Source of the DNA: a bacterium
GTDB lineage: Bacteria > Auribacterota > Erginobacteria > Erginobacterales > DAOSXE01
DNA: 64,000 nt
Reading direction: 5' to 3'
Assembly (NCBI GenBank): GCA_035380285.1
Contig: DAOSXE010000008.1
Location: 17,217 to 81,216, forward strand
Of this stretch, positions 5,836 to 62,667 are shown one piece after another. The notes beneath the pieces are model-generated. The model had not been told where the DNA came from, ran no database searches, and saw only the letters and a program-made list of their open reading frames with translations. Within the stretch, counting starts at the first letter, position 1; each line of letters begins with the position of its first letter. The translations under genes and the position numbers were made by a program.

Positions 5836-8460
5836 ATGAGGGAAAAAAAGAAGGTCGTCGCCGGGGTTTTGTTCCTGATCTTTCTGGCCGGGCTTCTGGT
5901 CAGGATCGCCGGCATCGGCTACGACGGTCTGATTCCGCTCAACCACGACGAACAGATTCATCTTAAAACCGCCCGCGCCTTCTCCGCCGGGGAACTCAAC
6001 CCCCGCGCCATCTGGGAGGGGGAAATTTTCCGTTACGCCTACTATCCCTGGCTGAGCGCCTACATTTTCGCCGGGATTCTGGCGGCCGTCCAGGCGGCCT
6101 GCGGGGGGGCCGTTTCCCTGGCCGGCGCCGCCGCCGAACTGATGGGCATCAGGGGAGCGAACGGCGCCCTGGTGACGGTGTCCTCGAAATGCCTGTTGGA
6201 TCCGGCCACGGCTCTCGCCGTCGGCCGCGTCGCCGTCGCCCTCTTCGGGGCCCTGACCGTTCTCGTGCTCTACCGCGCCGGCCGCGACTTGATGGGAAGG
6301 TGGGGGGCGGCCCTCGCCGCCGCATTTCTGGCGTTCAACGGCTATCATATCGCCAACTGCCATTGGATGAAGAACGACGTCATCGCGGCATTCTTCCTGA
6401 CGGTCGCCTTTTTCTTCTGCGTTCGGATATGGCTGAAGGGGCGCTGGTCGGACTATCTGCTGGGCGCCGTCTTCTCCGTCCTGGCCTTCAACGTGAAATG
6501 GTACAACGCTCCGGTCTTCGGCCTGTTCGCGGTCGCCCACCTGCTCCGGGCGGCGGTCCCGGACCGGCGCCCGGCCTGGAAGCGTCTTTTCCCGGGGCGC
6601 CTGTTCGCCGCCGCGCTGCTGGGCGCGGCGGTGTTCGTCGTCACCTGGCCGCTGCTTCTCTTCGACCCCGGTTTCGTGTTCGACAATGTCGCCCGGGTTT
6701 CCCGGGACACCTCGAGCCGGGGCATGTTCGGCAACGTGGGGACGTACGCCCAGCTCGGTTTCTGGGAGATCAGGTTCCACAACCTGGTCAATTTCGTGCT
6801 TTTCTCCTCGGGAATGGTTTCGGGAATGGGGTGGCCGGTCCTGCTGCTGGGCGCGGCCGGCCTGTTCGCCGGCCTGTTTTCGGGGCGCCGCGGCCTGCTC
6901 TTGGCCGCGTTCCCGGTCCTGTACCTGGTTTCGGCGATTCTCGTGGCCTCCCCGGGGATCCGCTATCAGGACACCATCCCCCTGTATCCGTTCTTCAGTT
7001 TGGGCGCGGCCTGGCTCGTGGTCAGAACGGCCGCCCTGGCCGGCCGCCGCCGCTCCTGGTTGATCGGGGGGGCGATCGCCGCGGCGATCCTGGTGCCCTA
7101 TCTCCGCAGCGCGCTCCGGCTCGATTACGGCTATTGGCAGAACTCGGTCAAGTACTACGCCGGGCGCTGGGCCCAACGCAACATCCCTCCGGGCAGCCTG
7201 ATCGTCAAGGAATCCAAGACCATTCCCCTGGCGCCGGGGCGTTACCGGGAACAGAAGGTGCGGGCGTTTTGGGGAGTCCCCCTGGAGAAGCTGGTCAAGG
7301 GGGGAGCCGATTATATCATCACCTCCGGGCGGCAGGAGCACCGGGCCCTGGAACGGTTCGGCCTCTTCGGCCCCGACCACCCCTTTTCCCGGTTCTACCT
7401 GGAACTGCCGACCAAGTTCGAGTTGATCAAGGAATTCGATCTCGGAGAGGTTCCCTACCGGGGAGGGACGACCAAGGTCTGGTCCCGGCGCCGGGAAGCC
7501 CACCTGGCGGTTTCCGGAATCGACTCCGGGTTTCTCCGCGTCTTCCAGGGGGAACATGCCACGGTTTCTCCCGATGTTCTCTTTCTCGACGACCAGGGGC
7601 GGTGCCAGGGCAACACCGCTTTCATGGTCCCGCCGGAGAGTTCCGTTTCCCGCCTCATGGTGACCTCCACGCCGCTGGAAGTGTTCGGGGTGAAGATCGT
7701 CAACGGTCCGCGGCCCGGCTTCGTCAAGATCGTCTCCGGCCCGACCGTCTGGCGCGAGAGGCTGGAGGCGGGGGAAAGCCGTCTTCTCAGCGTTCCCGCG
7801 AGCCGCTGTTTTCCCTGGATCCGGAACTCGTACCGGGTGGAGGTGATCTCTCCCTGGAACTCTCCGGTGCTGGCGGCGGTTCTGCCCGACCCCTTGAGGC
7901 TGGGCCGGGAGTTGGAAAAGATCGGCGACCCGGCGGCCCGTCACTATCTGGGCCGTTCCGCCGGTCTCTACCCGAACGACTGGTATGCGCTGCTGCTCTG
8001 GGGCGAACCGATCCCCCCGGAACAGCGGAAGGCGCTGGAACGGCTCCGGGCGGCCGCCCCGGCCGATTGGGACGGTCTTTTCCGGGAGTTGACCGGGTAC
8101 GAGGTGGCGTGGCTGGAAGCCCGGGCCGGCCGGACCTGGAAGGCTCGGCCCGGGAGCGAACTCCGCACCGGAACGTTCCATCTCCCGCCGGGCGAATACT
8201 CCGTCTCCGTCGCGGGGGGGACGGACGGCCGCCTGATCTTTTCCCGTGATGGAAGCGAGGAAGCCCCCTGGGCGCTCTCCGGAAGCGTTCCTTTCCGATT
8301 CCGGGTGGGGAGTTTCGCGGAGTCTTTGGGTTTGACGGTTACGGGTCCGGCGGAGTCGATGACGGTTTCTCCGTCGTTGCGGGCCTGGATGAAGGAGGAG
8401 ATGGGATGGACCGAGGATCGAACCGTCCCCGAACAAGCGCATGAACCCGCCGATGAATAG
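5836..8460 (+). CDS. GT-C fold membrane glycosyltransferase, ArnT/PMT (GT39/GT83)-like, with large C-terminal non-membrane domain
   Basis: Start ATG 5836 (MREKKKVVAGVLFLIFL), gaggt 10 nt upstream. About 11 predicted TM helices in the first about 450 aa with loop motifs typical of polyprenyl-P-sugar dependent transferases, then about 400 aa soluble region. The antisense 926-aa ORF (5719-8499) is R/G/P-rich with no structure and is rejected. Confidence 0.65.
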   Translation: MREKKKVVAGVLFLIFLAGLLVRIAGIGYDGLIPLNHDEQIHLKTARAFSAGELNPRAIWEGEIFRYAYYPWLSAYIFAGILAAVQAACGGAVSLAGAAAELMGIRGANGALVTVSSKCLLDPATALAVGRVAVALFGALTVLVLYRAGRDLMGRWGAALAAAFLAFNGYHIANCHWMKNDVIAAFFLTVAFFFCVRIWLKGRWSDYLLGAVFSVLAFNVKWYNAPVFGLFAVAHLLRAAVPDRRPAWKRLFPGRLFAAALLGAAVFVVTWPLLLFDPGFVFDNVARVSRDTSSRGMFGNVGTYAQLGFWEIRFHNLVNFVLFSSGMVSGMGWPVLLLGAAGLFAGLFSGRRGLLLAAFPVLYLVSAILVASPGIRYQDTIPLYPFFSLGAAWLVVRTAALAGRRRSWLIGGAIAAAILVPYLRSALRLDYGYWQNSVKYYAGRWAQRNIPPGSLIVKESKTIPLAPGRYREQKVRAFWGVPLEKLVKGGADYIITSGRQEHRALERFGLFGPDHPFSRFYLELPTKFELIKEFDLGEVPYRGGTTKVWSRRREAHLAVSGIDSGFLRVFQGEHATVSPDVLFLDDQGRCQGNTAFMVPPESSVSRLMVTSTPLEVFGVKIVNGPRPGFVKIVSGPTVWRERLEAGESRLLSVPASRCFPWIRNSYRVEVISPWNSPVLAAVLPDPLRLGRELEKIGDPAARHYLGRSAGLYPNDWYALLLWGEPIPPEQRKALERLRAAAPADWDGLFRELTGYEVAWLEARAGRTWKARPGSELRTGTFHLPPGEYSVSVAGGTDGRLIFSRDGSEEAPWALSGSVPFRFRVGSFAESLGLTVTGPAESMTVSPSLRAWMKEEMGWTEDRTVPEQAHEPADE

Positions 8461-9430
8461 TTCCGCCCGCCGTCCGCGGGTCACGGTCGTTACGCCCATC
8501 TACAACAACGCCCGGATGATCTCCGACTGCCTGGAAAGCCTGCTCCCGCAGGATTATCCCGATTACGAGGTCATCGTCGTCGACGACGGCAGCACCGACG
8601 GAACGGCGGAAGAGGTCAGGAAACATCCGGTCCGGCTTATCGTCAACCGGCACCTGGGCATCTCCGCCGCCCGCAACGCCGCCATCCGGGCCGCCGAGGG
8701 GGAGATCATAGTTCTGGTCGATTCCGACCTCAAGGTGCCCAAGGACCTTCTTTCCCGGTTGGTAGAACCGCTGACGGCCGACCCCCGCCGCGGGGTGGTG
8801 ATGGCGTGGTGGGACATCAGCAACCCCGATAACCTGGTGGCTTCCCTCATTTACCGCGGCTACGAATATTTCACCCGCGGTCTCGACGAACCCAATTTTT
8901 TCTGGGGGTACTGCTTCGCCATCAAGAAAGAGGTGCTCGATCGGGCGGGTTTCTTCGATGAAAATCTTCCCCTGGTGGAAGACGTCGACTACGCCTACCG
9001 GGTCGTGGCGCTGGGGTACACGATCAAGATCCTCCGGGAGGTCAAGGTTTGGCATTATTTCCGGGACAGCCTGGGCAAGCATCTCAGCCGCCACTTCAAA
9101 ACCGCCCGGCACAAGTTTCTCTACGTGCGCCGCACCGGACGCTACACCGATCAGCGGGGGACCGGGGCCGAGTACGCCAAGATCGTCGTTCATTCCGCGC
9201 TCGTGCTTTCCCTGGCGACCCTCCCCTGGACCCCGTGGATTTTCTGCGTCTTGCTGGCCGCTGCCCTGGGCAGCCACCTGCGCATGACCGTCTGGAGCAT
9301 GAGCAAAGGGCTCAAGTTCGCCCTGATGCTGCCCTTCGAGTTCCTGACCAAGATGGCCTGGGTTTTCGGCATCGCCCAAGGAGGCTTCTGGTTGCTCCGG
9401 GGGCACAACCCCTCTCCCCGGGATCTGTAA
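8441..9430 (+). CDS. GT2 family glycosyltransferase
   Basis: RVTVVTPIYNNARMISDCLESLLPQDYPDYEVIVVDDGSTDGT...VLVDSDL (GT-A, DxD). Overlaps the preceding gene by 20 nt. Confidence 0.8.
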   Translation: MNPPMNSSARRPRVTVVTPIYNNARMISDCLESLLPQDYPDYEVIVVDDGSTDGTAEEVRKHPVRLIVNRHLGISAARNAAIRAAEGEIIVLVDSDLKVPKDLLSRLVEPLTADPRRGVVMAWWDISNPDNLVASLIYRGYEYFTRGLDEPNFFWGYCFAIKKEVLDRAGFFDENLPLVEDVDYAYRVVALGYTIKILREVKVWHYFRDSLGKHLSRHFKTARHKFLYVRRTGRYTDQRGTGAEYAKIVVHSALVLSLATLPWTPWIFCVLLAAALGSHLRMTVWSMSKGLKFALMLPFEFLTKMAWVFGIAQGGFWLLRGHNPSPRDL

Positions 9431-10092
9431 TGCTGTTGCCGAACATTCCGCCGGAGGTCTTCGCCCTCTATGCCGGGCTTTCCTGGTGGGAACGGGCCCA
9501 TATCTGGCTGCGGTGGAAGCTCTGCCCGTTCCGTGCCATCGCCGCGCAGGTCCCCGCGGCGGGATCGGTCGCCGATATCGGTTGCGGCCGGGGGATGTTG
9601 GCCAATTACCTGGCCCTGACTTCCCCGTCCCGTTCGGTGATCGGCCTCGACCGCCAGGCCCAGCGGATCCGGGCGGCCCTGACCACCGTCGGCTCCCGGA
9701 GCAATATCTCCTTCAGAAACCAGGACGTCCGGGAGATGAGGGACGAAGTCTTCGACACCGTCATTCTCAGCGACATGCTCCACCACCTCACCTATCCCGA
9801 CCAGGAGGCTTTTCTCGGGCATTGTTACCGTATGGTTCGTCCGGGGGGGCTCCTCCTGCTCGAGGACGTCGGGGAGGTCCCCCGGTGGAAGTTCGTCTCC
9901 CATTATCTGATCGACCGGACCCTCAATCTGGGGAGGGGACAGAATTTCCGTACCCGGGAGCAATGGCGCCGGTTGTTGCAGGGTCTGGGCTTCGCGGTGG
10001 AAACCGTCCCCGTGCACCGTCGGCTCCCGCTCCCCGATTACCTGTTCGTCTGCCGGAAACCTCCGGAGAGCGCCGATGTCCCTTCCGGCTAA
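9430..10092 (+). CDS. class I SAM-dependent methyltransferase
   Basis: ADIGCGRGMLANYLA (motif I GxGxG), ...DTVILSDMLHHL, MVRPGGLLLLED. The ATG overlaps the upstream stop (TAATG). The six-frame ORF from 9049 is an extension. Confidence 0.75.
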   Translation: MLLPNIPPEVFALYAGLSWWERAHIWLRWKLCPFRAIAAQVPAAGSVADIGCGRGMLANYLALTSPSRSVIGLDRQAQRIRAALTTVGSRSNISFRNQDVREMRDEVFDTVILSDMLHHLTYPDQEAFLGHCYRMVRPGGLLLLEDVGEVPRWKFVSHYLIDRTLNLGRGQNFRTREQWRRLLQGLGFAVETVPVHRRLPLPDYLFVCRKPPESADVPSG

Positions 10093-11206
10093 GATCGGGC
10101 TGGGGTTGCGCTTCCCGGAGACGCTCGGGGAACGGTTCCGGGCCCGGCGGGCGCCCCGCCGCCTTCCCCGCGACCCCGACGGGTCGCTGCGCCTGGAAGC
10201 CCCGCTTCCGGTCACCCTGAGCCTGAACGTGATCCACGCCTGCAACCTGCGCTGCCGCATGTGCGGACAATGGCGCCGCGAAGACGGATCGCGTCCGGAA
10301 CGGCTGGAGCCGGAGGCCCTGCGGCCGGTGATCGACGCCGTCGCCCCCGCCAAGCCCAAGATCTATATCTGGGGGGGGGAACCGCTGATCCATCCCCGGA
10401 TCGACGAGATCGTCGGCTACGTCAAGAGCCGCTCCCTCTACACCGTCGTCAACACCAACGGGGTGCTGCTCGAGCGGCACGCCGACCGGCTCGTCGAACT
10501 GGGGGTGGACGGCCTCGATATTTCGATCGACGGCCCCCGGGAGATCCACGACCGGGTGAGGGGGGTGCCGGGGACCTACGACCGGGTCATGAAAGGCGTG
10601 GAAGCGGTCGTCCGCCGCCGCCGCCGGAAACCGATGATCAAGGCCGTCTCCGTGATCACGGCCGATTCTCTTCCCTCCCTCGACCAAACCCTGAAAGAAA
10701 TCGCCCGCAGCGGTTTCGATGCCGCCATCTTCAATCTGGGTTGGTTCGCCACGGAGGAGGTCGGCCGGGCGACGGAACGGTATTTCTCCCGCCACCTGGG
10801 CTGCGAGGCCAGGTCGTGGAAAGATTTCGTCGGGGTGCTGGGGACGGTCGATCCGGCGGAAGTGGCGAAGTTCATGCGCCGGGCTTCCCGGATCGGTTTT
10901 CCGGTGTTCTTCATACCCGCCGTCCGGCCGGAGCAGGTGGAAGAATATTATTCGCGCCCGGCTTCGTTTCTGGGGCGTCGGACCTGCTATATGCCCTGGC
11001 TGAGCCCGGATATCCGGCCCGGCGGCGACGTCACGTTCTGCCCCGATTTTCCCGATTACACAATCGGCAATATCAATACCGATTCTTTTCCATTACTATG
11101 GAACGGAGAAAAAGCGATCCGTTTCCGGCGCGCCCTGCGGGATCATGGGCTGTTCCCGCTCTGTTCGCGCTGTTGCGGTCTGTACGCTTTCGGAGGCGGA
11201 GTTTGA
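10076..11206 (+). CDS. radical SAM enzyme with C-terminal SPASM/twitch-type Cys cluster
   Basis: CNLRCRMCGQW (Cx3Cx2C), GGEPLIHP, then C-terminal CYMPW...CPDFPDYTIGNI...CSRCCGLY. Overlaps the methyltransferase by 17 nt. Confidence 0.8.
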   Translation: MSLPAKIGLGLRFPETLGERFRARRAPRRLPRDPDGSLRLEAPLPVTLSLNVIHACNLRCRMCGQWRREDGSRPERLEPEALRPVIDAVAPAKPKIYIWGGEPLIHPRIDEIVGYVKSRSLYTVVNTNGVLLERHADRLVELGVDGLDISIDGPREIHDRVRGVPGTYDRVMKGVEAVVRRRRRKPMIKAVSVITADSLPSLDQTLKEIARSGFDAAIFNLGWFATEEVGRATERYFSRHLGCEARSWKDFVGVLGTVDPAEVAKFMRRASRIGFPVFFIPAVRPEQVEEYYSRPASFLGRRTCYMPWLSPDIRPGGDVTFCPDFPDYTIGNINTDSFPLLWNGEKAIRFRRALRDHGLFPLCSRCCGLYAFGGGV

Positions 11207-11220: not shown

Positions 11221-13590
11221 ATGGACGGCAGGGGAAGAAGTTTCGTGAAGAGCAGCTTCGCGCTGGCGGCCGCGGCCGTTCTGGGAGCCCTGGTCCCGGC
11301 GCTCCCCGCGGCCGAATGCGTGCCCGCCCCCGAAATCACGCGCCAGCTTCCCCGGGCGGCTTCGGGTTGGTCGGGGAGCGTCTGCTGGCTGGACGGCGTG
11401 ATTTATGAAGTCACCGACGCCTATAACTACGCCATCGTCCGCGATGCCGTGACCGGCGCCCAGACCGGGATCAAGAATTTCGACGTCCCTTCCGATATTC
11501 AGGGCATCTCCTACGATCCCTGGAACGGGACCTGGTGGCTGAAGCTCCAGGGTGCGAAGGAGGCCTGGGAGTACAGCCAGAGCGGCGCCGGCCCCCTCCG
11601 CCAGGTATCCACCTACGGCTATGCCTTCGGGATTTACGTCGACCCGCTGGAAGAAGACGTGATCTGGATCGGGGGGACCGAGGACGCTTCGGTCAAGAAG
11701 GTCTCCCTGAGCAGCGGGGCGCTGCTGCGCACGATCCATACCTCGTTTCAGGTTCGGGGAGTGCTCCGGCTCGGCGATTATATCTGGTGCTCCCGTTCCG
11801 GCGAGGTCGGCGACGCCGGGATCCTGATCAAGATCGATATGGACGGAAACGAAATCTGCCGTTACTACATGCCGGTCTCCACCTACGACCACGATACCGG
11901 GGGGCTCTCCATCGACGACGACGGGCAGCTCTGGGTCGAGGGGGGCAAGGACGCGCGCATTTACCGCCTCGATATCGGGTATGAGCCGCCCACGCCCACT
12001 CCTTCGCCGACTCCCCGGCCCAGCGCCACCCCGACGCCGACGTCTTCCCCCGGGGGCCTCGTTCTCGACTCCAGCGATTACGACGGCGACGGCACTTCCG
12101 AAGCCGGAGTTTTCCGTCCGGACGGGGGGCTCTGGTCGATCTCGGGAGTGACCAAGTTCCACTTCGGCCGTTCCGGCGATATTCCCGCCAGCGCCGACTA
12201 CGACGGGGACGGCACCACCGATCCCGCCGTTTTCCGTCCCGCCAGCCGGGCCTGGTTCGTCCGGGGCCTGACCCGGGGTTTTTTCGGCGGCGCGGGCGAT
12301 CGCCCCGTTCCCGGGGATTACGACGGGGACGGCACCTGCGAGATCGCCGTGTACCGCGCCGCCGGCGCTTTCTGGGCGGTGGCGGGCCTTACCCGGGTCT
12401 ACTACGGGAGCGCCGGTGAGAACCCGGTCCCCGGGTACTACGGTCCCGGGGCCGCCAAACGGTTCGCCGTGTACCGGCCCGGCGATGGGAGGTGGTCGGT
12501 GCGGGGTTGGACCCGGTGTTTTTTCGGGAGCGCCGGGGACGTGCCGGTTCCGGGTTTCGGTGCCGGCCGGGTCGGTTGGGCTCCCGCCGTATTTCGACCG
12601 GCGACGGGGCTGTGGTCGAGGCGGGACGGCCCGGCGCTGTATTTCGGAGAAGCGGGGGACAGCCCGGTGCCCGGAGACTACCTCGGCGACGGCTGCGCCC
12701 CGGCCGCCGTCTTCCGAGCCGCCCGCAGCCGGTGGCTCATCTTCGGAACGACCTCGTTTTTTTACGGCGAACCCGGAGATCTTCTTCTCCACGGCCGCGC
12801 CGCTCGGCCTTCCCCGACCCCCTCGGCTTCGCCCACGCCTCCCCCGGTTATGGCCTCGACCGACTTCGACGGCGACGGCACCGACGATTTCGCGGTCTTC
12901 CGGCCCGCACTGGGGTTATGGCTGGTTCGGGGGATTACGCAGACGGAGCTGGGTCTTCCCGGCGATATCCCGGTTGCCGGAGACTACGACGGGGACGGTT
13001 CCGCCGAGGCCGTCGTTTTCCGTCCGTCCACGGGCAGATGGATCTTCGCCGGCGGCGGGGAAATCGCCTTCGGGCGCCCGGGGGACATTCCGGTCCCCCG
13101 GGATTACGACGGCGACGGGATCTGCGATCCGGCCGTCTACCGGCGCGCCCAGGGTTTCTGGGCGGTCCGTGGCTATACCCGTCTCTGGTTCGGAGACGAA
13201 TCGGCGCTGCCGGTCCCGTCGGACTACAACGGGTGGGGAGGAAGCGACTTCGCGGTTTACCGCCCCGGGACAGGCCTCTGGACGGTGCGGGGTCTGACCC
13301 GGGTCTTTCTCGGGCAGCCGGGTGATATTCCAGTTCCCGCGGACTATTCGGGGTGGGGGTCTTCGGGCCCCGCGGTCTACCGCCCGGAGACCTCCCTCTG
13401 GATCGACGCCGGGGGGGACGAGTTGGAGTTCGGAGGATCCCGGGACGTCCCCGTCCCCGGTAATTTCATCGGCCTGAACTATTCCGCGGTGGCGGTGTTC
13501 CGGGCCGCCAGCGGGCTTTGGCTGGTTAAAGGCCACACCCGGGTTTATTTCGGGGTCGAGGGCGATATCCCTCTCTTCAGCCCCCGCTGA
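11221..13590 (+). CDS. secreted FG-GAP/VCBS-like repeat protein with N-terminal beta-propeller-like domain
   Basis: ATG 11221 with ggag RBS. Signal-like MDGRGRSFVKSSFALAAAAVLGALVPALPAAEC, propeller-like domain (GWSGSVCW...YDHDTGGLSIDDDGQLWVEGGKDARIYRL), PT linker PPTPTPSPTPRPSATPTPTSSP, and about 16 tandem 44-aa repeats. The antisense 549-aa ORF (11143-12792) is rejected. Confidence 0.85.
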   Translation: MDGRGRSFVKSSFALAAAAVLGALVPALPAAECVPAPEITRQLPRAASGWSGSVCWLDGVIYEVTDAYNYAIVRDAVTGAQTGIKNFDVPSDIQGISYDPWNGTWWLKLQGAKEAWEYSQSGAGPLRQVSTYGYAFGIYVDPLEEDVIWIGGTEDASVKKVSLSSGALLRTIHTSFQVRGVLRLGDYIWCSRSGEVGDAGILIKIDMDGNEICRYYMPVSTYDHDTGGLSIDDDGQLWVEGGKDARIYRLDIGYEPPTPTPSPTPRPSATPTPTSSPGGLVLDSSDYDGDGTSEAGVFRPDGGLWSISGVTKFHFGRSGDIPASADYDGDGTTDPAVFRPASRAWFVRGLTRGFFGGAGDRPVPGDYDGDGTCEIAVYRAAGAFWAVAGLTRVYYGSAGENPVPGYYGPGAAKRFAVYRPGDGRWSVRGWTRCFFGSAGDVPVPGFGAGRVGWAPAVFRPATGLWSRRDGPALYFGEAGDSPVPGDYLGDGCAPAAVFRAARSRWLIFGTTSFFYGEPGDLLLHGRAARPSPTPSASPTPPPVMASTDFDGDGTDDFAVFRPALGLWLVRGITQTELGLPGDIPVAGDYDGDGSAEAVVFRPSTGRWIFAGGGEIAFGRPGDIPVPRDYDGDGICDPAVYRRAQGFWAVRGYTRLWFGDESALPVPSDYNGWGGSDFAVYRPGTGLWTVRGLTRVFLGQPGDIPVPADYSGWGSSGPAVYRPETSLWIDAGGDELEFGGSRDVPVPGNFIGLNYSAVAVFRAASGLWLVKGHTRVYFGVEGDIPLFSPR

Positions 13591-18760: not shown

Positions 18761-18789
18761 AAGTATCTTGCCTTGTGCCCGCCGGCCGA

Positions 18790-18840
18790 CGGGAATGTTC
18801 CGAGAAAAAAATTTATTGTAGTATTATACGGCGTTTTCGC
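18790..18840. promoter_or_regulatory. AT-rich divergent promoter region (aaaaaaatttattgtagtattatacgg): TGtAGTATTAT on plus, perfect TATAAT on minus
   Basis: The only AT-rich stretch in the 108-bp gap between divergent genes. Distances to both start codons are about 45 nt. Confidence 0.4.
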
Positions 18841-18868
18841 GGTCTACAACAAGGAAAGAGGGAGAGCC

Positions 18869-25915: not shown

Positions 25916-26070
25916 TTCCCGGCTCCGAAACGCCGTTTCGAGGTACTCCCTCGGGTAACAGTATATATGACGATTCCCTCCCCCGGTCAATGCCCGCGGC
26001 GGTCGGGTATTTCTCTGGCCAGGCTCGGCGAGTTTAGTACAATAACCGCACGCGATCTGGAGGCAGGGCC

Positions 26071-30438: not shown

Positions 30439-30452
30439 CCCAGGAGAGCGGG

Positions 30453-45301: not shown

Positions 45302-45455
45302 GTTCCCGGTCGTCGATCCGAGGTGGAAGTGTCCGGTGATTTCGGGTATCCTCCCCACCGGTGATTATCACGGCGGACAATTCAATGTCATCAGTTATTC
45401 CCCCGCCCCGCCGGGTCGGACCGCCGGCGGGAGCCGTTACCCGGGACAGCGGCCG

Positions 45456-48627: not shown

Positions 48628-48650
48628 TCCCCGATCCCGCCGCTCCGGAT

Positions 48651-55680: not shown

Positions 55681-57903
55681 ATGAGAATCTTGTCGCTGAC
55701 AACGGTTTTCTGCGTGCTCGCCCCCGGATTGTCCGCTGCCGCCCCCTCCTCGGATCTCTCCGCATTCATTTTTTCCGCCGACGACCCGGCTCTGGTGCGC
55801 GGCACCGAGATTGCCGAAGCGTTTTTCCGAGACGGCGGGGAGGCGGGAGTGGTGGTCCTGCTGGAGAAGGGCGGGGCCGGGGGCGGTTCGGGCCCGGTTT
55901 CCCTCCGGGAGCGTCGGCTCGGGGAGGAGCGCTTCCGCGCCTTGGAGGACAAAGCCTTGGCGGTTTTCCCCCGGGGGAGTTTCCGTCTCCGCCACCGGTA
56001 CTCCGCCATCCCCGGTTTTTCGGGAACGGTGAGCCCGGAAGGGTTGGAGGCGTTGCTGGCCAGCGGTCTCGCTTTCTCCGTCGAGCCGGAGACCAGGATC
56101 GAAGCCTGTCTCCGTCAGGGGCTGGCCCTGATCGGCGCCGAGCGCTACCGCAGCCGGTTCGACGGTGCGGGGGTGGCCGTGGCCGTCTGCGACAGCGGAG
56201 TCGACTACCGCCACCCCCTCCTCGGCGGCGGCGGGTTCCCCAACCTCAAGGTCCTGGGCGGATACGATTTCGGCGACGGCGACGAAGATCCCTCCCCGGG
56301 GGGATCCGCCCATGGAACCGCCTGCGCCGGTATCGTCGCCGGGGCCCGGGAGGACGTCGGGGATTATATCGGCGGAGTCGCCCCCGGCGCCGGCATCTAC
56401 GCGCTCAAGATCACCTCGGGCGATTCCACCTCGGCCTCCTCCGGGGATATCGTCGCCGCCTGGGATTGGTGCGTCCGCCATCGCGACGACCGCCCCGGGC
56501 AGCCCCTACTGGTGATCACCCTCAGCTTCGGCGGGGGGAAGTTTGCCTCCGCCTGTGACGACTATTCTCCCGCGCTGACACAGGCGGCGGCCGCCGCGCG
56601 CGCGGCGGGGATAACCATCTTCGCCTCCGCCGGCAACAGCGGCTATTGCGACTCGGTCTGTTGGCCCGCCTGCGTCAGCGGGATCAATCCCGTCGGCGCC
56701 GTTTATGACGACGCCTTCGGCCCTATCGCTCCCTGCGTTTCCCAGGACAGCTGCCGCCCCGACAAAATCTACACCGACGGCTGCAGCACATCGTACTACG
56801 TTCTTCAGGAGTCGGAACCGGATCTGGTCGCCGCTTACTCCAACTCGTGGCCCCTGGCGGTTTTTCTGGCCCCCGCCGACCGGGTCCAGACCCTGGACAT
56901 AGCCGGCGCCGGGGGGTATACCGACGGGGATTATTATCCCGGTTTCGGAGGGACGTCCGCCGCCTGTCCCTATGCGGCCGGGGCCGCGGCCGTGGTCCAG
57001 GGCGCCTCCGTTTTCGTCAACGGGACGGCGCTCGCGCCTTCCGACCTGGAAGCGCTTCTGTGCGCCGCCGCCGTCAAGGTGGTCGACGAGAATACGGGGC
57101 AGGCCGCCTCCCGGATCGATCTGGAGAAAGCCCTTTGCACCCTCGTCGAACCCTTTCGGGACGTGGTCGGCGATTACAGCGGGGACGGCACCGCGGACGT
57201 GGCGATCTACCGCCCCCGCCTCGGGTTATGGGTCGTGCGCGGGATCACCCGGATCTGGTGGGGCCGCTCTGGGGATGTGCCGGTACCGGGCGACTACGAC
57301 GGCGACCGCACCTGGGAAGCCGCGGTTTTTCGTCCCTCCGCCGGGCAGTGGGAGATTCGGGGCGCCGGGTCGGTCTATTACGGCCGGACCGGGGACCTGC
57401 CGGTGCCCGCCGACTACAGCGGCGACGGCCGGTGCCAACCCGCGGTTTTCCGCCCCTCCACCGGAGGCTGGTTCGTGGGCGGGTCCTCTCCGTTGATTTT
57501 CGGCGGAGAGGGAGATACGCCTCTTCCGGCCGACTATGACGGCGACGGCCGTGCCGAGCCGGCGGTCTATCGGGCCGGCCTGGGCAAATGGATGTTCCCG
57601 GGATGCCCCCCGTTGTATTTCGGCAGGGAAGACGACCTGCCCGTGCCCGCGGATTACGACGGCGACGGGCGCGTGGACGTCGCCGTCTACCGGGCCCCCT
57701 CCGGCCGCTGGCTGGTCCGGGGAGTGACCGGCTGTTCCTTCGGCGCTTCCGGCGACCTGCCGGTTCCCGCCGATTACGACGGCGACGGCACCGCGGATAT
57801 CGCCGTCTTCCGGTCCGGCCGGTGCCGCTGGCTGGTCAAGGATGTCCTGAGCGCCTGGTTCGGCGTTTCCGGCGATCTGCCCGTCTCCGGCAACCTTCGC
57901 TGA
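55681..57903 (+). CDS. secreted subtilisin-like serine protease (S8 family) with C-terminal FG-GAP/VCBS-like repeats
   Basis: Signal peptide; catalytic triad motifs AVCDSGVD (Asp), HGTACAGIV (His), GGTSAACPYAAGAAA (Ser); then about 8 FG-GAP-like repeats; RBS aggagggggat. Confidence 0.85.
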   Translation: MRILSLTTVFCVLAPGLSAAAPSSDLSAFIFSADDPALVRGTEIAEAFFRDGGEAGVVVLLEKGGAGGGSGPVSLRERRLGEERFRALEDKALAVFPRGSFRLRHRYSAIPGFSGTVSPEGLEALLASGLAFSVEPETRIEACLRQGLALIGAERYRSRFDGAGVAVAVCDSGVDYRHPLLGGGGFPNLKVLGGYDFGDGDEDPSPGGSAHGTACAGIVAGAREDVGDYIGGVAPGAGIYALKITSGDSTSASSGDIVAAWDWCVRHRDDRPGQPLLVITLSFGGGKFASACDDYSPALTQAAAAARAAGITIFASAGNSGYCDSVCWPACVSGINPVGAVYDDAFGPIAPCVSQDSCRPDKIYTDGCSTSYYVLQESEPDLVAAYSNSWPLAVFLAPADRVQTLDIAGAGGYTDGDYYPGFGGTSAACPYAAGAAAVVQGASVFVNGTALAPSDLEALLCAAAVKVVDENTGQAASRIDLEKALCTLVEPFRDVVGDYSGDGTADVAIYRPRLGLWVVRGITRIWWGRSGDVPVPGDYDGDRTWEAAVFRPSAGQWEIRGAGSVYYGRTGDLPVPADYSGDGRCQPAVFRPSTGGWFVGGSSPLIFGGEGDTPLPADYDGDGRAEPAVYRAGLGKWMFPGCPPLYFGREDDLPVPADYDGDGRVDVAVYRAPSGRWLVRGVTGCSFGASGDLPVPADYDGDGTADIAVFRSGRCRWLVKDVLSAWFGVSGDLPVSGNLR

Positions 57904-57955: not shown

Positions 57956-57963
57956 TGTATACT
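57956..57963 (+). promoter_or_regulatory. candidate extended -10 element TGTATACT upstream of the beta-helix protein gene
   Basis: GTGTATACTAT about 48 nt upstream of ATG 58012, with the SD aaggagg in between. Confidence 0.35.
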
Positions 57964-58011
57964 ATCCAGTGAGCAATTATTCGGAAGAATCGCCACCACA
58001 AGGAGGATGGG

Positions 58012-59325
58012 ATGAAAACGGTATTTCTAGTCGGCTGTACGATCCTCTTCCTCGCCGCTCCGGCTCTGTCGGCCGAAGACCTCCAGTCTCTCGTGGCCGC
58101 GGCCGGTCCGGACTCGGTCGTCGAGTTGGGTCCCGGTTGTTACCGGGGGCCCGTCAGGCTGGAGAAGGGGATGACCCTCTCCGGCGCCGGCGCCGGGTTG
58201 ACCGTCATCGAGGGGGATAAGGTCCCGGCCGTGATCGACGCCGCCGACGGTTGTTGCCTGCGCGGGCTTACGGTCCGCGGCGGCTCCGCCGGCGTTCGCA
58301 ATAACGGGGGCAGGTTGGGGGTTTTCGGGTGCGAGTTCGTCGATAACGCCGTGAGCGCGGTGTACGCCGGCGGCGGGGGCTGCATTCTGGTCAACAACCT
58401 GGTGCGGGGGAGCGGGAAACTGGGCTTTCAGCTCAGCGCCGTGGTGGCCCTGGTCGGCAACAACACCGTGGCGGAGCGGGAGACTGCCGTTCAGGCCTGG
58501 AAAGCCCCCTGGAGCTCCTTGGCGAACAATATTCTGGCTTACTCCGGCGTCGGTTTCGGACTGGAGGAGGGGGCTTCTCCCGATCTGTTCAACAACGATT
58601 TCTGGGCCAACGGCGCCGATACGTCCGCCGGGGAGTTTCTCCCGGAAAATCTTTACCTGGCGCCGGTCTTCGTCAACCCCGACTCCGGCGACTACGCGCT
58701 TTCCCCCGGCTCTCCCCTCCTGACCGCGGGGGGGGGAGCCGACTGGCTGCCGGCGCGCCTAGGGCCGCTGGTCGGCTGCGATCTTTCCCGCGACCTCGGG
58801 TTGGAGGAATGCCGGGAGATGATGGGCCTGTTGGAGCGGGAGATCATCGCCTGGAAAGGGGAGCTGGTATACGGTTTGGGCTCCGAGCCCGGCGAATTCC
58901 AGGTTCTGGTCCGCCAGGCCGGTCCCGCTTTCCGGGTAACCTCGTCCGCCGCCGGGACGGCGATCGACCGGGTCCAGGCCTGGGATGACGTTACCGACGA
59001 GGATCTGAAAAGCTCGGTGATCGAATCGGACCCGGCGGCAGTCGAAGTCAGCGGAGAGGAGGGGGGGGCGTATCCTTCGGCCCGGGGCCGCTATGTTCTC
59101 GACAGCGTCTTCAGCCGTCCCGAATCCTTTTTCCGCGGCGACGGCGGCGATCTCTGTTTCCGCCGCCAAACCAACATGCCCCTGGTCACGGTGGAGGTTC
59201 CTCGAGGGTGGGAGATATCCCGGGCGGAGCCCGAGGGCGAGACCGTTCCGGGCGGGGTTCGCTATCGCAACCCCGAACAGGAGTTGTTCGCCATCTCCTT
59301 GGATTTGATTCCTTCCGCGGAATAA
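58012..59325 (+). CDS. secreted right-handed parallel beta-helix repeat protein (pectate-lyase-fold; possible polysaccharide lyase/hydrolase)
   Basis: Signal peptide MKTVFLVGCTILFLAAPALSA; repeated G..V.NN...G segments (PbH1-like): LRGLTVRGGSAGVRNNGGRLGVFGCEFVDNAVSAVYAGGGGCILVNNLVRGSG... Confidence 0.65.
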   Translation: MKTVFLVGCTILFLAAPALSAEDLQSLVAAAGPDSVVELGPGCYRGPVRLEKGMTLSGAGAGLTVIEGDKVPAVIDAADGCCLRGLTVRGGSAGVRNNGGRLGVFGCEFVDNAVSAVYAGGGGCILVNNLVRGSGKLGFQLSAVVALVGNNTVAERETAVQAWKAPWSSLANNILAYSGVGFGLEEGASPDLFNNDFWANGADTSAGEFLPENLYLAPVFVNPDSGDYALSPGSPLLTAGGGADWLPARLGPLVGCDLSRDLGLEECREMMGLLEREIIAWKGELVYGLGSEPGEFQVLVRQAGPAFRVTSSAAGTAIDRVQAWDDVTDEDLKSSVIESDPAAVEVSGEEGGAYPSARGRYVLDSVFSRPESFFRGDGGDLCFRRQTNMPLVTVEVPRGWEISRAEPEGETVPGGVRYRNPEQELFAISLDLIPSAE

Positions 59326-59357
59326 ACCCGGATACGCGACGGGAGGCTTTCGCGGCC

Positions 59358-60269
59358 ATGTTCGACGCGGTGGGGATAGGGCGTTGCTGTCTCGATTATC
59401 TGGCGCTGGTGGACGGTTTCCCGGCGGAGAATTCGAAGGTGCGCGCGCTCCGGCATGCGGTTGAAGGCGGAGGACAGTCGTCGACGGCCATGGCGGCTCT
59501 TTCCCGGTTGGGGCTCGCCGCCGCTTTTGTCGGAGTGGTGGGGGACGACCCCGAAGGTGTTCTGGTTCTGGATGGTCTGGCCGCCGCCGGCGTGGATGTC
59601 TCCCGGGTGCGCGTGGCCCCCGGAATCAGGACCCCGGTTGCCCAGATCGTGATCAATACCCGCCGCCGGTCCCGAACCATCGTCTATTCGGATTCGGCCC
59701 CCCACCTCCTCGACGCCTTGCCTTGCCCGCTCGACCTGCTGGCCGGCGCCGGCTGCCTCATGGTCGATCCGTTCGGGACCGGGCTCGGTCTCCGGACGGC
59801 GCCCGGTGCGCGCGCCGCGGGTGTCCCCGTCGTCTACGACCTGGAGCACACGGCCGAAGGAGTGGGGGGGATGATCGCTGCCAGCGATTACGTCATCGGC
59901 TCCCGCGATTCGCTGGCGCTGCTGGGGCTGGACCGGCCCGAGGCGGCGTTGCGGGAGCTGATGCGCCGCGGTTGCCGGAGAGCGGCGGTCGTCACCCTGG
60001 GCGAAGAAGGCAGCGTGGGGACCGACGGAGCTTCGGTCCGCCGCCAGCGTGCCTTCCCGGTCGACGCCGTCGACACCACCGCCGCCGGGGACGCCTACCA
60101 TGCCGGTTTCGCCTACGGAGTGGTTCGAGGTTGGGACCTGCCCGAGTGCATGGAGTTCGCCGCCGCGGTCGGAGCCCTGGTCTGCCGGGAGGTGGGGGGA
60201 AGAAAATCGCTGCCCACGCTGGCGGAGGTGGAGCGGCTGTTGGCCGGGAGCGGGTCCGGTGGAGCCTAG
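59358..60269 (+). CDS. PfkB-family carbohydrate kinase (ribokinase-like)
   Basis: GIGRCCLDYLALVDGFPAENSKVRA ...; C-terminal DTTAAGDAYHAGFAYG (PfkB signature 2 with catalytic Asp). RBS gacgggagg; the ORF from 59208 is an extension. Confidence 0.75.
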   Translation: MFDAVGIGRCCLDYLALVDGFPAENSKVRALRHAVEGGGQSSTAMAALSRLGLAAAFVGVVGDDPEGVLVLDGLAAAGVDVSRVRVAPGIRTPVAQIVINTRRRSRTIVYSDSAPHLLDALPCPLDLLAGAGCLMVDPFGTGLGLRTAPGARAAGVPVVYDLEHTAEGVGGMIAASDYVIGSRDSLALLGLDRPEAALRELMRRGCRRAAVVTLGEEGSVGTDGASVRRQRAFPVDAVDTTAAGDAYHAGFAYGVVRGWDLPECMEFAAAVGALVCREVGGRKSLPTLAEVERLLAGSGSGGA

Positions 60270-60276
60270 AACGGTC

Positions 60277-62667
60277 GTGGGCCGGAGGGAACTCCTGGGG
60301 GCGGCGCTTCTCTTGGGAGGGGCCTTGCTCCTTCTTTACGGGGACGTTTTCTTCTCCTCCGTCCGCTTGCTTTCCAGCGTGGACGGGGATGTTTCCCGTC
60401 TTTACTACTATTGGAGATCGTTCGGATTCGGGTTGTTGCGGAAAGGGGTTCTCCCCCTCTGGAACCCGGCCGTTCTCTGCGGGGTCCCCTTCGCCGCCTA
60501 CCCCGAGACCTCGATTTTTTACCCCCCCAACCTGATCTTTCTGCTGGTCCCGGTCTCGGTCGGGATCAACATCTCCCTGGTGGGGCATCTCTTCGCCGCC
60601 GGGATCTTCCAATACCTGTTTCTCCGGCGCCTCCGGCTGGGTCCGCCGGCGGCCTTGGGCGCGGCGTCGATCCTGACCTTCAGCGCCCCCCTGGTGCTGC
60701 ACCTGTACGCCGGGCATCTTTCCAACATCTGTACCATGGCCTGGATCCCGCTCTGGTTCTTTCTGGCCGAACTGGTACTGGGGACGCGCGGTCCCGCCGC
60801 CCCGGTTCTGCTGGGCGGCGCCTTGGGCATGGCGATCTTTGCCGGGCACTGGCAGTACGTGTTCTACGGCGGCCTCTGGCTCGGGTTGTACCTGCTGGCC
60901 CGGCTGGCCGTTCTCGGGGGCGCCGGGGCCGCGGGGCGGGTGGGGAAACTGGTTTTCGCGGCCGGCCTGGGCGCGGCCCTGGGGGCCGTCCAGTGGATTC
61001 CGGCCCTGGAACTGTCCCGGGATTCCTTCCGCGCCGGGCTCGGTTACGACTGGGCGGCCGCTTTCTCGCTTCCCCCCATCAACCTGGTTACGCTCCTCTT
61101 CCCCGGGTTTCTCGGCGACGGCGTCGGCGCGATGTACTGGGGGCGGAACCTGTATTGGGAGATGTGCGCGTTTTGCGGAATCTCGACGCTGGGGTTCGTC
61201 GGGTTGGGGTTGTGCGGCCCCCGGCGTCGGCCGGCCGTGCTGTTCCTGGTGCTGGCGCTGCTGGCTTTGCTCCTTTCCTTGGGGGGCTATACCCCCCTGC
61301 TCAAGCTCCTGTACGATCATGTGCCCGGCTTCGACCTGGTCCGGGGCAGCGCCAAGGCGCTGTTCATGGCGGTCTTTTTCCTCTCCGCCGCGGCCGCGGT
61401 CGGCATCGAGGCGTTGGGCCGGGATCTTACCCGGCTCCGCCGGGCGGCGGGGTTGTCCCTGATCGCCCTGGCGCTTCTCCCCGCGCTGGCCTCGGTTTCC
61501 TCGCCCCCGCGGCCGTGGAAAAACCTGGTCAGGGAAGAACTGGGCCGCGGCCGGCATAACGAATTCATGCCCCCCGGGTTCCCGGTCTGGTGGCGGGAAC
61601 TGGCGAGGGAGACTCCGCCGGAGCGGTGGACGGAGTACGTGGGGGTGCTGGCCGCCCACCCCATGTTCCTGGGGCCGGCCTGGAGCCTGGCCCGAACGGA
61701 TTTTCTCCGAGCGGCGCTGGTTTTGGCCGGATTCGGCATCCTCCTGGGGCTGCGTGGATGGTGGGCGCGTCCGGCGGCCGTGGGCCTGGTTCTGCTGGAA
61801 CTTCTCAGCTGGGCGGCGGGTTTCGTCACCGATTTCGATTCCCGCCGCTGCGGTTGGGAGAGGGGGCTTGAGGGCTTTTTTCGGGACCGGGGCCGGGAGG
61901 GGCGGTACATCAGCTTCGACCCCTCCGACTATAACCGGGGGATGCTGGGGGACGCGGCCTGCCTGACCGGATCCCAGGCCGATGCTCCGCTGCGGACGTT
62001 GCGCTACCTGGCCGCCGGAGAATTCGGCGACCCCGAACGTTTCGACCTGGTGGTGGATGTGACCCGGTCATCTCCGCTCTTCGCCTTGGCGGGGCTTCGC
62101 TTTTACGTGACGCCCGGTGATATGGACGTGCCCTATCCCGGTTTCCGGCGGGTCGCCCGGGGGGGCGATAAAGCCGTCTGGGAAGGGGCCGCGTGGGACC
62201 GCTGCATCGTCTCCTCCGCTTGCGCGTTCGTCCCCGACGGGCGCTCCCTCCTGAACCGGCTGGCCTCCCCGGGCTACGACCCGCGCCGGGAAATTCTGCT
62301 GGAAGACCCTCCTCCCGCCTGGTTCGCGGCCGGTCCCGTTCCGGCCGGAAAAGTTCTCGGGGTCGAGGAAACCCCCAACCGGCTCCGGGTCCGGGTGGAG
62401 ATGAGCGGAAACGGAATTCTTCTGGTCAACGACTCCTGGGCGCGGGGCTGGTCCGCCCGGGTCGACGGTCGGGAAACGCCCGTCTATCGCGCGAATTATC
62501 TGATGCGGGCGGTCTTTCTCCCTCCCGGCGCCCATGACGTGTATTTTTCCTACCGCCCCGCTTCCTTCGCGCTCGGGGCCGCGCTCACCGTCGCCGGCGC
62601 CCTTTTGCTGGTGGGAGTGCTCGCGGTATCTTGCCTAAGGGGAAGCGGGGGGGGCAAGCACGTTTGA
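60277..62667 (+). CDS. YfhO-family GT-C membrane glycosyltransferase (second copy)
   Basis: GTG 60277. Polytopic N-terminus and C-terminal hallmark ILLVNDSWARGWSARVDGRETPVYRANYLMRAVFLPPGAHDVYFSYRP plus a terminal TM helix. The ORF from 60049 is an extension. Confidence 0.65.
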   Translation: MGRRELLGAALLLGGALLLLYGDVFFSSVRLLSSVDGDVSRLYYYWRSFGFGLLRKGVLPLWNPAVLCGVPFAAYPETSIFYPPNLIFLLVPVSVGINISLVGHLFAAGIFQYLFLRRLRLGPPAALGAASILTFSAPLVLHLYAGHLSNICTMAWIPLWFFLAELVLGTRGPAAPVLLGGALGMAIFAGHWQYVFYGGLWLGLYLLARLAVLGGAGAAGRVGKLVFAAGLGAALGAVQWIPALELSRDSFRAGLGYDWAAAFSLPPINLVTLLFPGFLGDGVGAMYWGRNLYWEMCAFCGISTLGFVGLGLCGPRRRPAVLFLVLALLALLLSLGGYTPLLKLLYDHVPGFDLVRGSAKALFMAVFFLSAAAAVGIEALGRDLTRLRRAAGLSLIALALLPALASVSSPPRPWKNLVREELGRGRHNEFMPPGFPVWWRELARETPPERWTEYVGVLAAHPMFLGPAWSLARTDFLRAALVLAGFGILLGLRGWWARPAAVGLVLLELLSWAAGFVTDFDSRRCGWERGLEGFFRDRGREGRYISFDPSDYNRGMLGDAACLTGSQADAPLRTLRYLAAGEFGDPERFDLVVDVTRSSPLFALAGLRFYVTPGDMDVPYPGFRRVARGGDKAVWEGAAWDRCIVSSACAFVPDGRSLLNRLASPGYDPRREILLEDPPPAWFAAGPVPAGKVLGVEETPNRLRVRVEMSGNGILLVNDSWARGWSARVDGRETPVYRANYLMRAVFLPPGAHDVYFSYRPASFALGAALTVAGALLLVGVLAVSCLRGSGGGKHV

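Follow-up and report, generated by a model that had tools for sequence, protein, structure and literature searches.

Nine GT-C-type membrane proteins in one Auribacterota locus: a candidate envelope-glycosylation system and the question of its acceptors

To what does a bacterium attach sugars when a single stretch of its chromosome encodes nine GT-C-type membrane proteins? The question is raised by a 64,000-nucleotide window (the whole stretch of DNA analysed here, from contig DAOSXE010000008.1 of an Auribacterota assembly), in which a first-pass annotation had pointed out, within 57 kb, at least seven polytopic glycosyltransferase-like proteins and two further polytopic ones, and had suggested that they O-glycosylate co-encoded FG-GAP repeat proteins. 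Our preferred interpretation, which we consider somewhat probable, is that of a composite chromosomal locus for envelope glycosylation by way of lipid-carried sugars, in which a conserved core would act on a non-protein glycoconjugate and extra GT-C enzymes would add decorations, some of them maybe on proteins.

Genes were called from the G+C content at third codon positions (GC3) and from frame plots first, and family matches (Pfam, NCBIfam) were considered afterwards. The nine flagged open reading frames (ORFs) were all found at the coordinates given or within a few codons of them. A scan for transmembrane (TM) segments showed that all nine products are polytopic: each begins with some 10-14 hydrophobic segments, after which most continue into a soluble C-terminal region. 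Proteins identical to F (694 aa), H (439 aa), I (550 aa) and E (711 aa) are already on record. The nine proteins are designated A to I:

5836-8460, plus strand: A, PMT_2-family GT-C protein, 874 aa (Pfam PMT_2, 1.6e-9, 38.6 bits, cut-off 26.1)
13607-15289, plus strand: B, PMT_2-family GT-C protein, 560 aa (Pfam PMT_2, 2.6e-8, 34.7 bits)
31354-34596, plus strand: C, ArnT-like fold with C-terminal beta-sandwich domains (AlphaFold model and Foldseek)
34593-36980, plus strand: D, paralogue of C (hhalign and BLASTP)
38203-39522, plus strand: H, protein at the fringe of PMT_2, 439 aa (family through homologues)
39519-41654, plus strand: E, member of the YfhO superfamily, 711 aa (through homologues)
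43649-45301, minus strand: I, polytopic DUF2298 (chlor_Arch_YYY) protein, 550 aa (Pfam DUF2298, 29.1 bits, cut-off 27.8; TIGR03662 weak)
49365-51449, plus strand: F, TMTC-like TM domain and TPR array, 694 aa (TPR models of Pfam, structural model, homologues)
60277-62667, plus strand: G, YfhO family (Pfam YfhO, 3.9e-9, 35.9 bits, cut-off 28.5)

The high density of GT-C proteins was confirmed. Eight of the nine (A-H) are tied to the GT-C superfamily, by Pfam, Foldseek, hhalign or their homologues, and I by its assignment to DUF2298 alone, a family which we take to be a member of the GT-C clan of Pfam. Protein C, which starts at 31354 or 31492, gave zero matches in Pfam and NCBIfam. Its AlphaFold 2 model (pLDDT 84) had ArnT as its top Foldseek match (5f15, E 1.5e-7, TM score 0.61 when normalised to ArnT), followed by STT3, PglB and EmbC, while the C-terminal beta-sandwich domains matched BcsB and glycosidases bearing carbohydrate-binding modules (CBMs). 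C is the founding member of a conserved family of proteins of about 1060 aa (38-55% identity), which has no Pfam model and whose members come from metagenome-assembled genomes of the PVC group and from Candidatus Erginobacter occultus (phylum Auribacterota). D aligned with the profile of this family over 752 columns (hhalign probability 100%, E 2.6e-44; BLASTP 2e-10). The soluble C-terminal part of A, about 440 aa long, is of unknown fold and without a Pfam match.

Both proteins that had been named YfhO belong to this superfamily. The direct match of G is confined to its C-terminal 72 residues, and its C-terminus also matched NCBIfam PgfM2 (5.7e-8). For E, the direct Pfam match was weak (E 0.067), and the assignment comes from its homologues: an exhaustive phmmer search retrieved 12,682 relatives, and when E and G were aligned with 20 homologues, YfhO was matched by 20 of these 22 sequences (best 1.7e-30). 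E and G have in common a PLWNP..G.P motif along with 25 further conserved columns, and invariant PLWNP, G and W columns are shared between G and the family of E. An acidic residue in the first outer loop, after TM1, is present in C (Asp57, invariant in 19 sequences), in F (D30/D31) and in G (D38, at a near-invariant YfhO column); E has Gly at the latter column and Asp47 three residues on. The 70 homologues of H included eight with PMT_2 (PF13231), one with GT87 (PF09594) and one with DUF2079 (PF09852). A sequence-only search of the PDB gave no match for the profiles of the F and C families nor for the single sequences G, H and A, and fold comparison alone succeeded. Profile-profile comparison was not significant for the C family versus the F family, H versus the C family, and I versus the YfhO or F families, so that any relation among these is at the level of the fold only.

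Is F a bacterial TMTC enzyme? The first-pass annotation had likened it to these eukaryotic protein O-mannosyltransferases, and this held for its GT-C domain, its DD motif and its TPR array, but not for DUF1736 nor for the arginine of the ERxxY motif. Residues 1 to about 390 form the TM domain, and the TPR array (TPR_1, TPR_2 and other Pfam models) runs from about 395 to 690. In the structural model, residues 1-392 adopt a GT-C fold with about 11 helices, a count that would place the TPR array on the non-cytoplasmic side. The membrane domain had no direct family match in Pfam, and DUF1736 (PF08409, the TM7-TM8 loop) did not match even at E values up to 10. The motifs described for TMTC proteins include M1 (DD), M2 (SHKSYRP), M3 (RxD), M4 (KE(T/Q)xxT) and M7 (ERxxY) (PMC7801869). 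F retains M1 after TM1, M2 reduced to WRP, and M3 as RSD; M4 is altered (RE for KE), as is M7, where DNWLY replaces ERxxY and the phosphate-binding arginine is lost, and M5 and M6 have no assignable counterparts. D30/D31 are conserved in 16 of 18 sequences. The homologues of F are mostly proteins with a TM domain and TPRs (550-700 aa), and even bacterial relatives are about 30% identical to it; two were named 'protein O-mannosyl-transferase' by JGI, and matches to PMT_2 and TMTC_DUF1736 were obtained for 4 and 3 of the 18 homologues, respectively. F also departs from its own family, with NPAWSS instead of HPxxxE (residues 124-135) and DNWLYLP instead of (E/D)R..YLP (residues 318-325). Because of the absence of DUF1736 and of the changes in catalytic-site motifs, we did not file F as a member of the TMTC family. 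The literature searched contained no characterised bacterial relative of TMTC proteins.

Since two ArnC/GtrB-type synthases are encoded in the locus, we infer that its GT-C enzymes use polyprenyl-phosphate-linked sugar donors. The genes that would provide such donors are the following:

2894-3826, minus strand: GT2a, ArnC/GtrB-type polyprenyl-phosphate glycosyltransferase (phmmer against PDB: ArnC 8e-47, GtrB 2e-38, DPMS 2e-16)
3823-4974, minus strand: WecE-type dTDP-4-amino-4,6-dideoxyhexose transaminase (NCBIfam NF008687, 527 bits, cut-off 375; Pfam DegT)
4976-5722, minus strand: WecD/RffC-like acyltransferase, a weak assignment (TIGR02382, E 7e-10, 38.7 bits, below the cut-off of 195; without Pfam match)
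8441-9430, plus strand: GT2b, membrane GT2 not of the ArnC type (best full-length PDB match 6yv7; also chondroitin synthase)
23734-24699, plus strand: MprF-type flippase-like membrane protein (Pfam LPG_synthase_TM, 7.8e-23; N-terminal part of NCBIfam MprF)
28999-30438, plus strand: B12-binding radical SAM protein, HpnJ-like (Pfam B12-binding and Radical_SAM; NCBIfam HpnJ, 8e-90, 302 bits, below the cut-off of 577)
30435-31397, plus strand: GT2c, ArnC/GtrB-type polyprenyl-phosphate glycosyltransferase (phmmer against PDB: ArnC 3.3e-55, GtrB 6e-36, DPMS 2e-24)
45336-47110, plus strand: two genes, one for an NAD-dependent sugar epimerase/dehydratase and one for a sugar-phosphate nucleotidyltransferase (Pfam; gene calls in the locus L001)

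Three polyprenyl-phosphate-sugar synthases had been announced, and two were retained. GT2a and GT2c align with ArnC over their full length, carry C-terminal TM helices and are 34% identical to each other, whereas the similarity of GT2b to ArnC is limited to its N-terminal 100 aa, its closest match being 6yv7. The flippase-like protein is present, but its domain is that of MprF (LPG_synthase_TM) and not of the GtrA or ArnE/F type. The three-component scheme of transmembrane glycosylation, as outlined in PMC8035078 and PMC5836110, had been considered complete in this cluster. Its synthase and GT-C components are indeed there, but we found no small flippase gene of the GtrA/GtcA or ArnE/F type and no small multi-TM ORF outside the called genes of the window.

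The genes for the WecE equivalog and the weakly assigned WecD-like protein adjoin GT2a and are divergent from the PMT_2 gene A, an arrangement that follows the logic of the Arn pathway with a different sugar. Because GT2a adjoins these two genes, one donor is probably a polyprenyl-phosphate-linked 4-acylamido-4,6-dideoxyhexose; we know of no characterised case in which WecE, a WecD-like protein and an ArnC-like GT2 are combined. HpnJ takes part in the synthesis of the cyclitol ether of hopanoids, in which it rearranges a lipid-linked glucosamine, and the HpnJ-like protein of the locus may perhaps modify a lipid-linked sugar donor. In the window, its gene adjoins one for a flavodoxin-like protein with two [4Fe-4S] ferredoxin motifs (28024-28839, minus strand; Pfam Fer4 families and Flavodoxin_5, coding signal).

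Which part of the locus is conserved? We compared it with the core block in five loci from relatives (L085-L089) and in a sixth (L005) that was reached via purH. The order B12-binding radical SAM, ArnC-like GT2, C was kept in all five and also in L005; the radical SAM protein is 70-73% identical and the homologue of C 40-52% identical in relatives. C is immediately followed by a D-like gene in L005 and in each of the five except L087, where genes for proteins of 592 and then 845 aa come next. Further genes of this block, and those next to it, are:

22044-23744, plus strand: conserved cytoplasmic protein of 566 aa (homologues 50-62% identical in L085 and L086, with the position conserved)
26071-26811, plus strand: WcaF-like hexapeptide acetyltransferase (Pfam Hexapep; NCBIfam WcaF family, 89 bits, below cut-off; conserved synteny)
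26808-28034, plus strand: GT4 glycosyltransferase (Pfam; 65-68% identical in relatives)
47107-49262: purH and AAA_28, embedded inside the glycosylation region (Pfam)

The 566-aa protein, the acetyltransferase and the GT4 precede the core in L085, L086 and L088; the acetyltransferase and the GT4 alone do so in L089, and none of the three in L087. Downstream of the core come the nucleotidyltransferase, purH and AAA_28 in L085, L086 and L088, and the nucleotidyltransferase and purH in L089. The whole order from GT4 through AAA_28 recurs in L005. In L089, the closest relative, genes for the GDSL protein, H (in the same position), the UbiA-phosphodiesterase fusion and the epimerase are found as well. 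We did not find A, B, E, F, G or I in the relatives' loci examined. The position of purH/AAA_28 is kept in L005, L085, L086 and L088 (in L089, purH stands alone, on the opposite strand, before the end of the locus), which indicates a long-standing gene order of the chromosome and not a mobile element. A horizontally acquired island was also rejected because the G+C content is uniform and neither tRNA nor mobility genes are present. The purH product itself is encoded in identical form by several metagenome contigs, including a 72-kb JGI contig and one from the assembly GCA_036804545.1; its nearest counterpart among 185,579 species representatives, from a 'PVC group bacterium', is 57% identical. 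Judged by best matches, the host would be an uncultured member of the PVC group, probably Auribacterota-like.

The 566-aa protein of the window had no match in Pfam or NCBIfam. Its homologues at 3386-5251 of L085 (weak) and 3475-5316 of L088 carry a match to Ulvan_lyase_N, which hints at a polysaccharide-acting fold.

The acceptors that had been proposed are secreted proteins with FG-GAP repeats, encoded by at least six genes of the window:

1-915, plus strand: 3' part of a gene for a secreted FG-GAP repeat protein, cut by the window edge (Pfam FG-GAP; repeats of about 42 aa, DYDGDG..AVFRP..G.W; GC3 0.89)
924-2504, plus strand: second FG-GAP paralogue, start at 924 or 1017 (codon-position GC profile and sequence inspection; without Pfam match)
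11221-13590, plus strand: secreted FG-GAP protein with two Pro/Thr/Ser linkers, at residues 254-278 and 529-543 (Pfam FG-GAP; signal-peptide-like N-terminus)
16478-18760, minus strand: secreted GDSL esterase with a Pro/Ser linker (residues 480-496) and C-terminal FG-GAP repeats (Pfam)
51556-55566, plus strand: secreted amidohydrolase with CBM4_9, Pro/Thr linkers and C-terminal FG-GAP repeats (Pfam; GC3 0.89)
55681-57903, plus strand: secreted subtilase of family S8 that ends in FG-GAP repeats, without Pro/Thr linker (Pfam)

All of them end in a common array of FG-GAP-like repeats of about 42 residues, and wherever the N-terminus is complete, it resembles a signal peptide. The region ahead of the repeats varies: it is a GDSL esterase, an amidohydrolase with CBM4_9, an S8 protease or, in the three paralogues (1-915, 924-2504 and 11221-13590), a common domain without a family match. 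The product of 924-2504 consists of this domain, as found in 11221-13590, followed by a short Pro/Thr stretch and FG-GAP-like repeats. Two FG-GAP proteins share a ...TGRL(A/C)FNPSAA tail. A repeat module carried by unrelated secreted enzymes looks like one for surface display or anchoring. The linkers that the first-pass annotation had mentioned are, in the window, indeed confined to FG-GAP proteins, but at the threshold used they occur in three of the six, and the S8 subtilase has none. Among relatives, they are present in the FG-GAP homologues of L086 and absent from those of L085 and L088.

The window also encodes the following proteins:

15222-16481, minus strand: SGNH/AlgX-like protein (Pfam Lipase_GDSL_2, ALGX)
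18773-20095, plus strand: GT4 glycosyltransferase (Pfam Glycos_transf_1, Glyco_trans_4_4)
20092-22002, plus strand: sulfatase-family lipoprotein (Pfam Sulfatase, 2.5e-40; lipobox-like LSSC; arylsulfatase-like below cut-off)
24665-26125, minus strand: membrane-anchored SGNH-like protein, a weak assignment (coding signal; one TM segment; GDSL E 0.33)
36977-38206, plus strand: SGNH/AlgX-like protein (Pfam Lipase_GDSL_2, ALGX)
41638-43758, plus strand: fusion of a UbiA prenyltransferase and a type I phosphodiesterase of the alkaline-phosphatase superfamily (Pfam UbiA 2e-22, Phosphodiest 9e-28)

The same UbiA-phosphodiesterase fusion is found in L089 (14562-16634). We considered it as an analogue of a DPPR synthase/phosphatase, and found no match to PDB sequences, none but generic or archaeal prenyltransferase models in NCBIfam (not DPPR synthase), and no DprE1 gene in the window.

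The reading that we prefer, a composite envelope-glycosylation locus, would comprise four steps. In the cytoplasm, the nucleotidyltransferase, the epimerase/dehydratase, the WecE-type 4-aminotransferase and the WecD- and WcaF-like acyltransferases would make nucleotide sugars. GT2a and GT2c would then load single sugars onto polyprenyl phosphate on the cytoplasmic side of the membrane, and the lipid-linked sugars would be flipped, the MprF-type protein being the sole candidate for this step in the window. Finally, the nine GT-C-type transferases, from at least five families, would add the sugars to acceptors at the outer face. The core (HpnJ-like radical SAM, GT2c, C and D, usually with the GT4, the acetyltransferase and the 566-aa protein) would build or decorate a non-protein glycan polymer or glycolipid, to which the lineage-specific F, E, G, A, B, H and I would add further decorations; for some of the extra GT-C enzymes, the acceptors may be the Pro/Thr/Ser linkers of the FG-GAP enzymes encoded nearby, which would then be O-glycosylated. 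The predicted products point to a glycan acceptor through the CBM-like domains of C, the two AlgX-like SGNH proteins, the WcaF-like acetyltransferase, the two GT4s and the Arn-like module. Protein O-glycosylation of the FG-GAP proteins with Pro/Thr linkers is plausible by analogy, and is a live but unproven candidate role for the accessory enzymes; in its favor are the confinement of the linkers to FG-GAP proteins, the FG-GAP genes next to the core in three of five relatives, and the streptococcal precedent described below.

Several observations do not sit well with this reading. No initiating phosphoglycosyltransferase, Wzx, Wzy or ligase, chain-length regulator, or ABC transporter/exporter was found by Pfam among all called genes of the window, so that a complete polymer pathway is not visible here; genes for initiation and export could lie elsewhere in the genome. 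The MprF-type protein is no proven flippase for polyprenyl-phosphate sugars, and it is absent from the core of the relatives. There are two ArnC-type synthases for nine GT-C proteins, which leaves most donors unexplained. The matches of the beta-sandwich domains of C to BcsB and CBMs are at the level of the fold only (TM score about 0.1 over the whole model), and these domains could also bind protein. Last, F may be inactive or catalytically atypical because the HPxxxE and ERxxY motifs of its own family are altered.

A possible, though doubtful, alternative is that all nine GT-C proteins act on non-protein acceptors (polysaccharide, lipopolysaccharide or lipid A, glycolipid), the FG-GAP module binding or anchoring to the glycan, or FG-GAP repeats being merely abundant in these genomes. 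The presence of one C-terminal module on unrelated enzymes fits such anchoring, and SLH and choline-binding domains, which bind wall polymers, provide an analogy for it, but glycan binding by FG-GAP repeats is conjecture. The WecE and ArnC-like genes next to the divergent PMT_2 gene A follow the Arn logic of lipid A modification, C carries CBM/BcsB-like domains, AlgX-like SGNH proteins are present, and HpnJ, the closest named relative of the core radical SAM protein, acts on a lipid-linked sugar. Against this stand the absence from the window of genes for initiation, polymerisation and export, and the fact that TPR arrays on GT-C proteins are best known from protein-directed enzymes (TMTC proteins; OGT matches).

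Could the locus instead serve chiefly for protein O-glycosylation by several enzymes, with F, the YfhO and the PMT_2 proteins modifying Ser/Thr of the Pro/Thr linkers or of the FG-GAP repeats? We think this unlikely, although part of the evidence is in its favor. F combines the TMTC architecture with the DD motif and a GT-C fold, and its homologues include those named as O-mannosyltransferases by JGI and the three of 18 that match TMTC_DUF1736. G resembles, in the C-terminal part, PgfM2, a protein encoded in an operon for protein glycosylation. The linkers are confined to FG-GAP proteins, the genes for which (at least six) are interleaved with those of the GT-C proteins in the window and stand directly upstream of the core in three of five relatives. 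Pro/Thr linkers of secreted enzymes of actinobacteria are O-mannosylated by GT-C enzymes of the PMT family. There is also a precedent in streptococci, in which GtrB with the YfhO-family protein PgtC2, and PgfS with PgfM1, O-glycosylate extracytoplasmic Ser/Thr-rich regions, and in which the pgf operon adjoins the genes of its adhesin substrates (PMC12041528).

On the other hand, F lacks the DUF1736 match and the ERxxY arginine, and those relatives' loci that have FG-GAP neighbours lack F, E and G. The co-occurrence of TMTC-like with FG-GAP genes, which the first-pass annotation had proposed as a check, was not observed in three other TMTC-like loci: GT2 neighbours were found in two and FG-GAP neighbours in none. 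The S8 subtilase and the FG-GAP homologues of L085 and L088 are without linkers; a glycan would suit the CBM-like domains found in C as well as the AlgX-like SGNH proteins, GT4s and WcaF-like acetyltransferase; and teichoic acids and lipid A are also among the acceptors of the YfhO and PMT_2 families (for lipid A, compare the ArnT structures), according to PMC5836110 and PMC8035078. A bolder version, in which F with the YfhO and PMT_2 enzymes would be dedicated to the O-glycosylation of linkers or FG-GAP repeats while the core makes an unusual lipid-linked donor, possibly ring-rearranged or C-methylated, appears to us quite improbable.

That independent glycosylation modules and unrelated genes for secreted proteins merely lie side by side, without a common function, is very improbable: synteny is indeed limited to the core and to the genes for the GDSL protein, H, the UbiA-phosphodiesterase fusion and the epimerase in L089 (none of A, B, E, F, G and I was found in the relatives' loci), purH and AAA_28 do lie inside the region, and promoter-like sites upstream of two genes of the FG-GAP regions would suggest separate units, though they occur at chance frequency, but genes for nine GT-C-type proteins, for two GT2s of the ArnC type and three further glycosyltransferases, and for sugar-nucleotide enzymes are packed almost without gaps into 57 kb, and the adjacency of FG-GAP genes recurs in relatives.

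The window as a whole has a uniform G+C content of 64-69%, which generates many spurious ORFs. It contains about 41 genes, which are co-directional and follow one another so closely that hardly any intergenic DNA is left; the widest unassigned gap is 389 bp and holds no ORF. No tRNA gene was found in the window. GC3 is 0.89 in 1-915 and 51556-55566, compared with about 0.80 elsewhere, and GC skew is negative (-0.135) across the stretch from 52 to 56 kb. Scans of the window for promoters and terminators were uninformative, the promoter-like sites mentioned above being no commoner than chance. The remaining genes that we could assign are:

9430-10092, plus strand: S-adenosylmethionine-dependent methyltransferase (Pfam Methyltransf_25, 9e-18)
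10076-11206, plus strand: radical SAM/SPASM protein (Pfam Radical_SAM, SPASM; no NCBIfam equivalog reached)
58012-59325, plus strand: secreted right-handed beta-helix (NosD-like) protein (Pfam NosD, Beta_helix)
59208-60269, plus strand: PfkB-family sugar kinase (Pfam PfkB, 1e-41; IolC/ribokinase-like below cut-offs)

The first two (9430-11206) lie directly upstream of the FG-GAP gene 11221-13590 and the PMT_2 gene B. No precursor peptide was found, and a role of the radical SAM/SPASM protein as an anaerobic maturase for the sulfatase lipoprotein was discarded, such a match being absent among the best 25 of 71 NCBIfam matches listed.

Every type of component in this locus is already known. What is unusual is the presence of nine GT-C-type proteins from at least five families in one locus, the coupling of the C/D family, which has no Pfam model, to an HpnJ-like radical SAM protein, the UbiA-phosphodiesterase fusion, and the location of a bacterial TMTC-like gene close to those of plausible substrates. 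The annotation of GT-C enzymes is difficult, as is seen here: for four of the nine, no direct match to a family was significant, and a fifth (F) matched TPR models only. For envelope chemistry in Auribacterota-like bacteria, on which the literature searched contained nothing, the locus offers candidates in compact form. The proximity of F to plausible protein substrates makes the function of bacterial TMTC relatives testable by heterologous co-expression; O-glycosylation of proteins by F, if true, would be the first function for bacterial relatives of the animal TMTC enzymes. If the acceptor is a glycan, the common C-terminal FG-GAP module becomes a candidate for a new surface-anchoring domain.

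How does the locus compare with known systems? The mycobacterial EmbCAB/AftA-D cluster likewise contains several large GT-C proteins with carbohydrate-binding C-terminal domains near a UbiA-family enzyme, and EmbC, AftA, AftB and AftD are among the structural matches of the GT-C proteins described here; in contrast, the UbiA domain of our locus matches generic or archaeal models and is fused to a phosphodiesterase, and no DprE1-like gene was seen. F resembles the eukaryotic TMTC1-4 by the TPR array C-terminal to its multi-span GT-C domain, its DD, (Y/W)RP and RxD motifs and its approximately 11 helices (PMC7801869), and differs from them by the lack of a DUF1736 match, the replacement of KE by RE and of ERxxY by DNWLY, and the absence of cadherin-like substrates.

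With the GtrA/GtrB/Gtr* and CsbB-GtcA-YfhO systems, the locus shares a GtrB-type GT2 and GT-C proteins that include two members of the YfhO superfamily. Unlike them, it has an MprF-type domain instead of a GtrA/GtcA flippase and nine GT-C proteins for two synthases, and its host is a bacterium of the PVC group, compared with a Firmicute or enterobacterial phage system. The streptococcal GtrB/PgtC2 and Pgf (PgfS, PgfM1, PgfE, PgfM2) systems have in common with it a GT2 with YfhO-type GT-C proteins, an epimerase gene, and adjacent candidate substrates with Ser/Thr-rich linkers. The similarity between G and PgfM2, however, covers about 70 residues (31 bits, for a cut-off of 1500), and the linkers are here Pro/Thr-rich and stand between folded domains.

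Compared with ArnB/ArnC/ArnT, the aminotransferase of the locus is a WecE equivalog and not ArnB, there is no ArnA, ArnD or ArnE/F, and A has about 440 additional residues. The resemblance lies in GT2a and GT2c, which match ArnC over their full length, in the DegT-family 4-aminotransferase and the acyltransferase-like gene beside GT2a, with A in divergent orientation, and in the model of C, for which ArnT is the best match.

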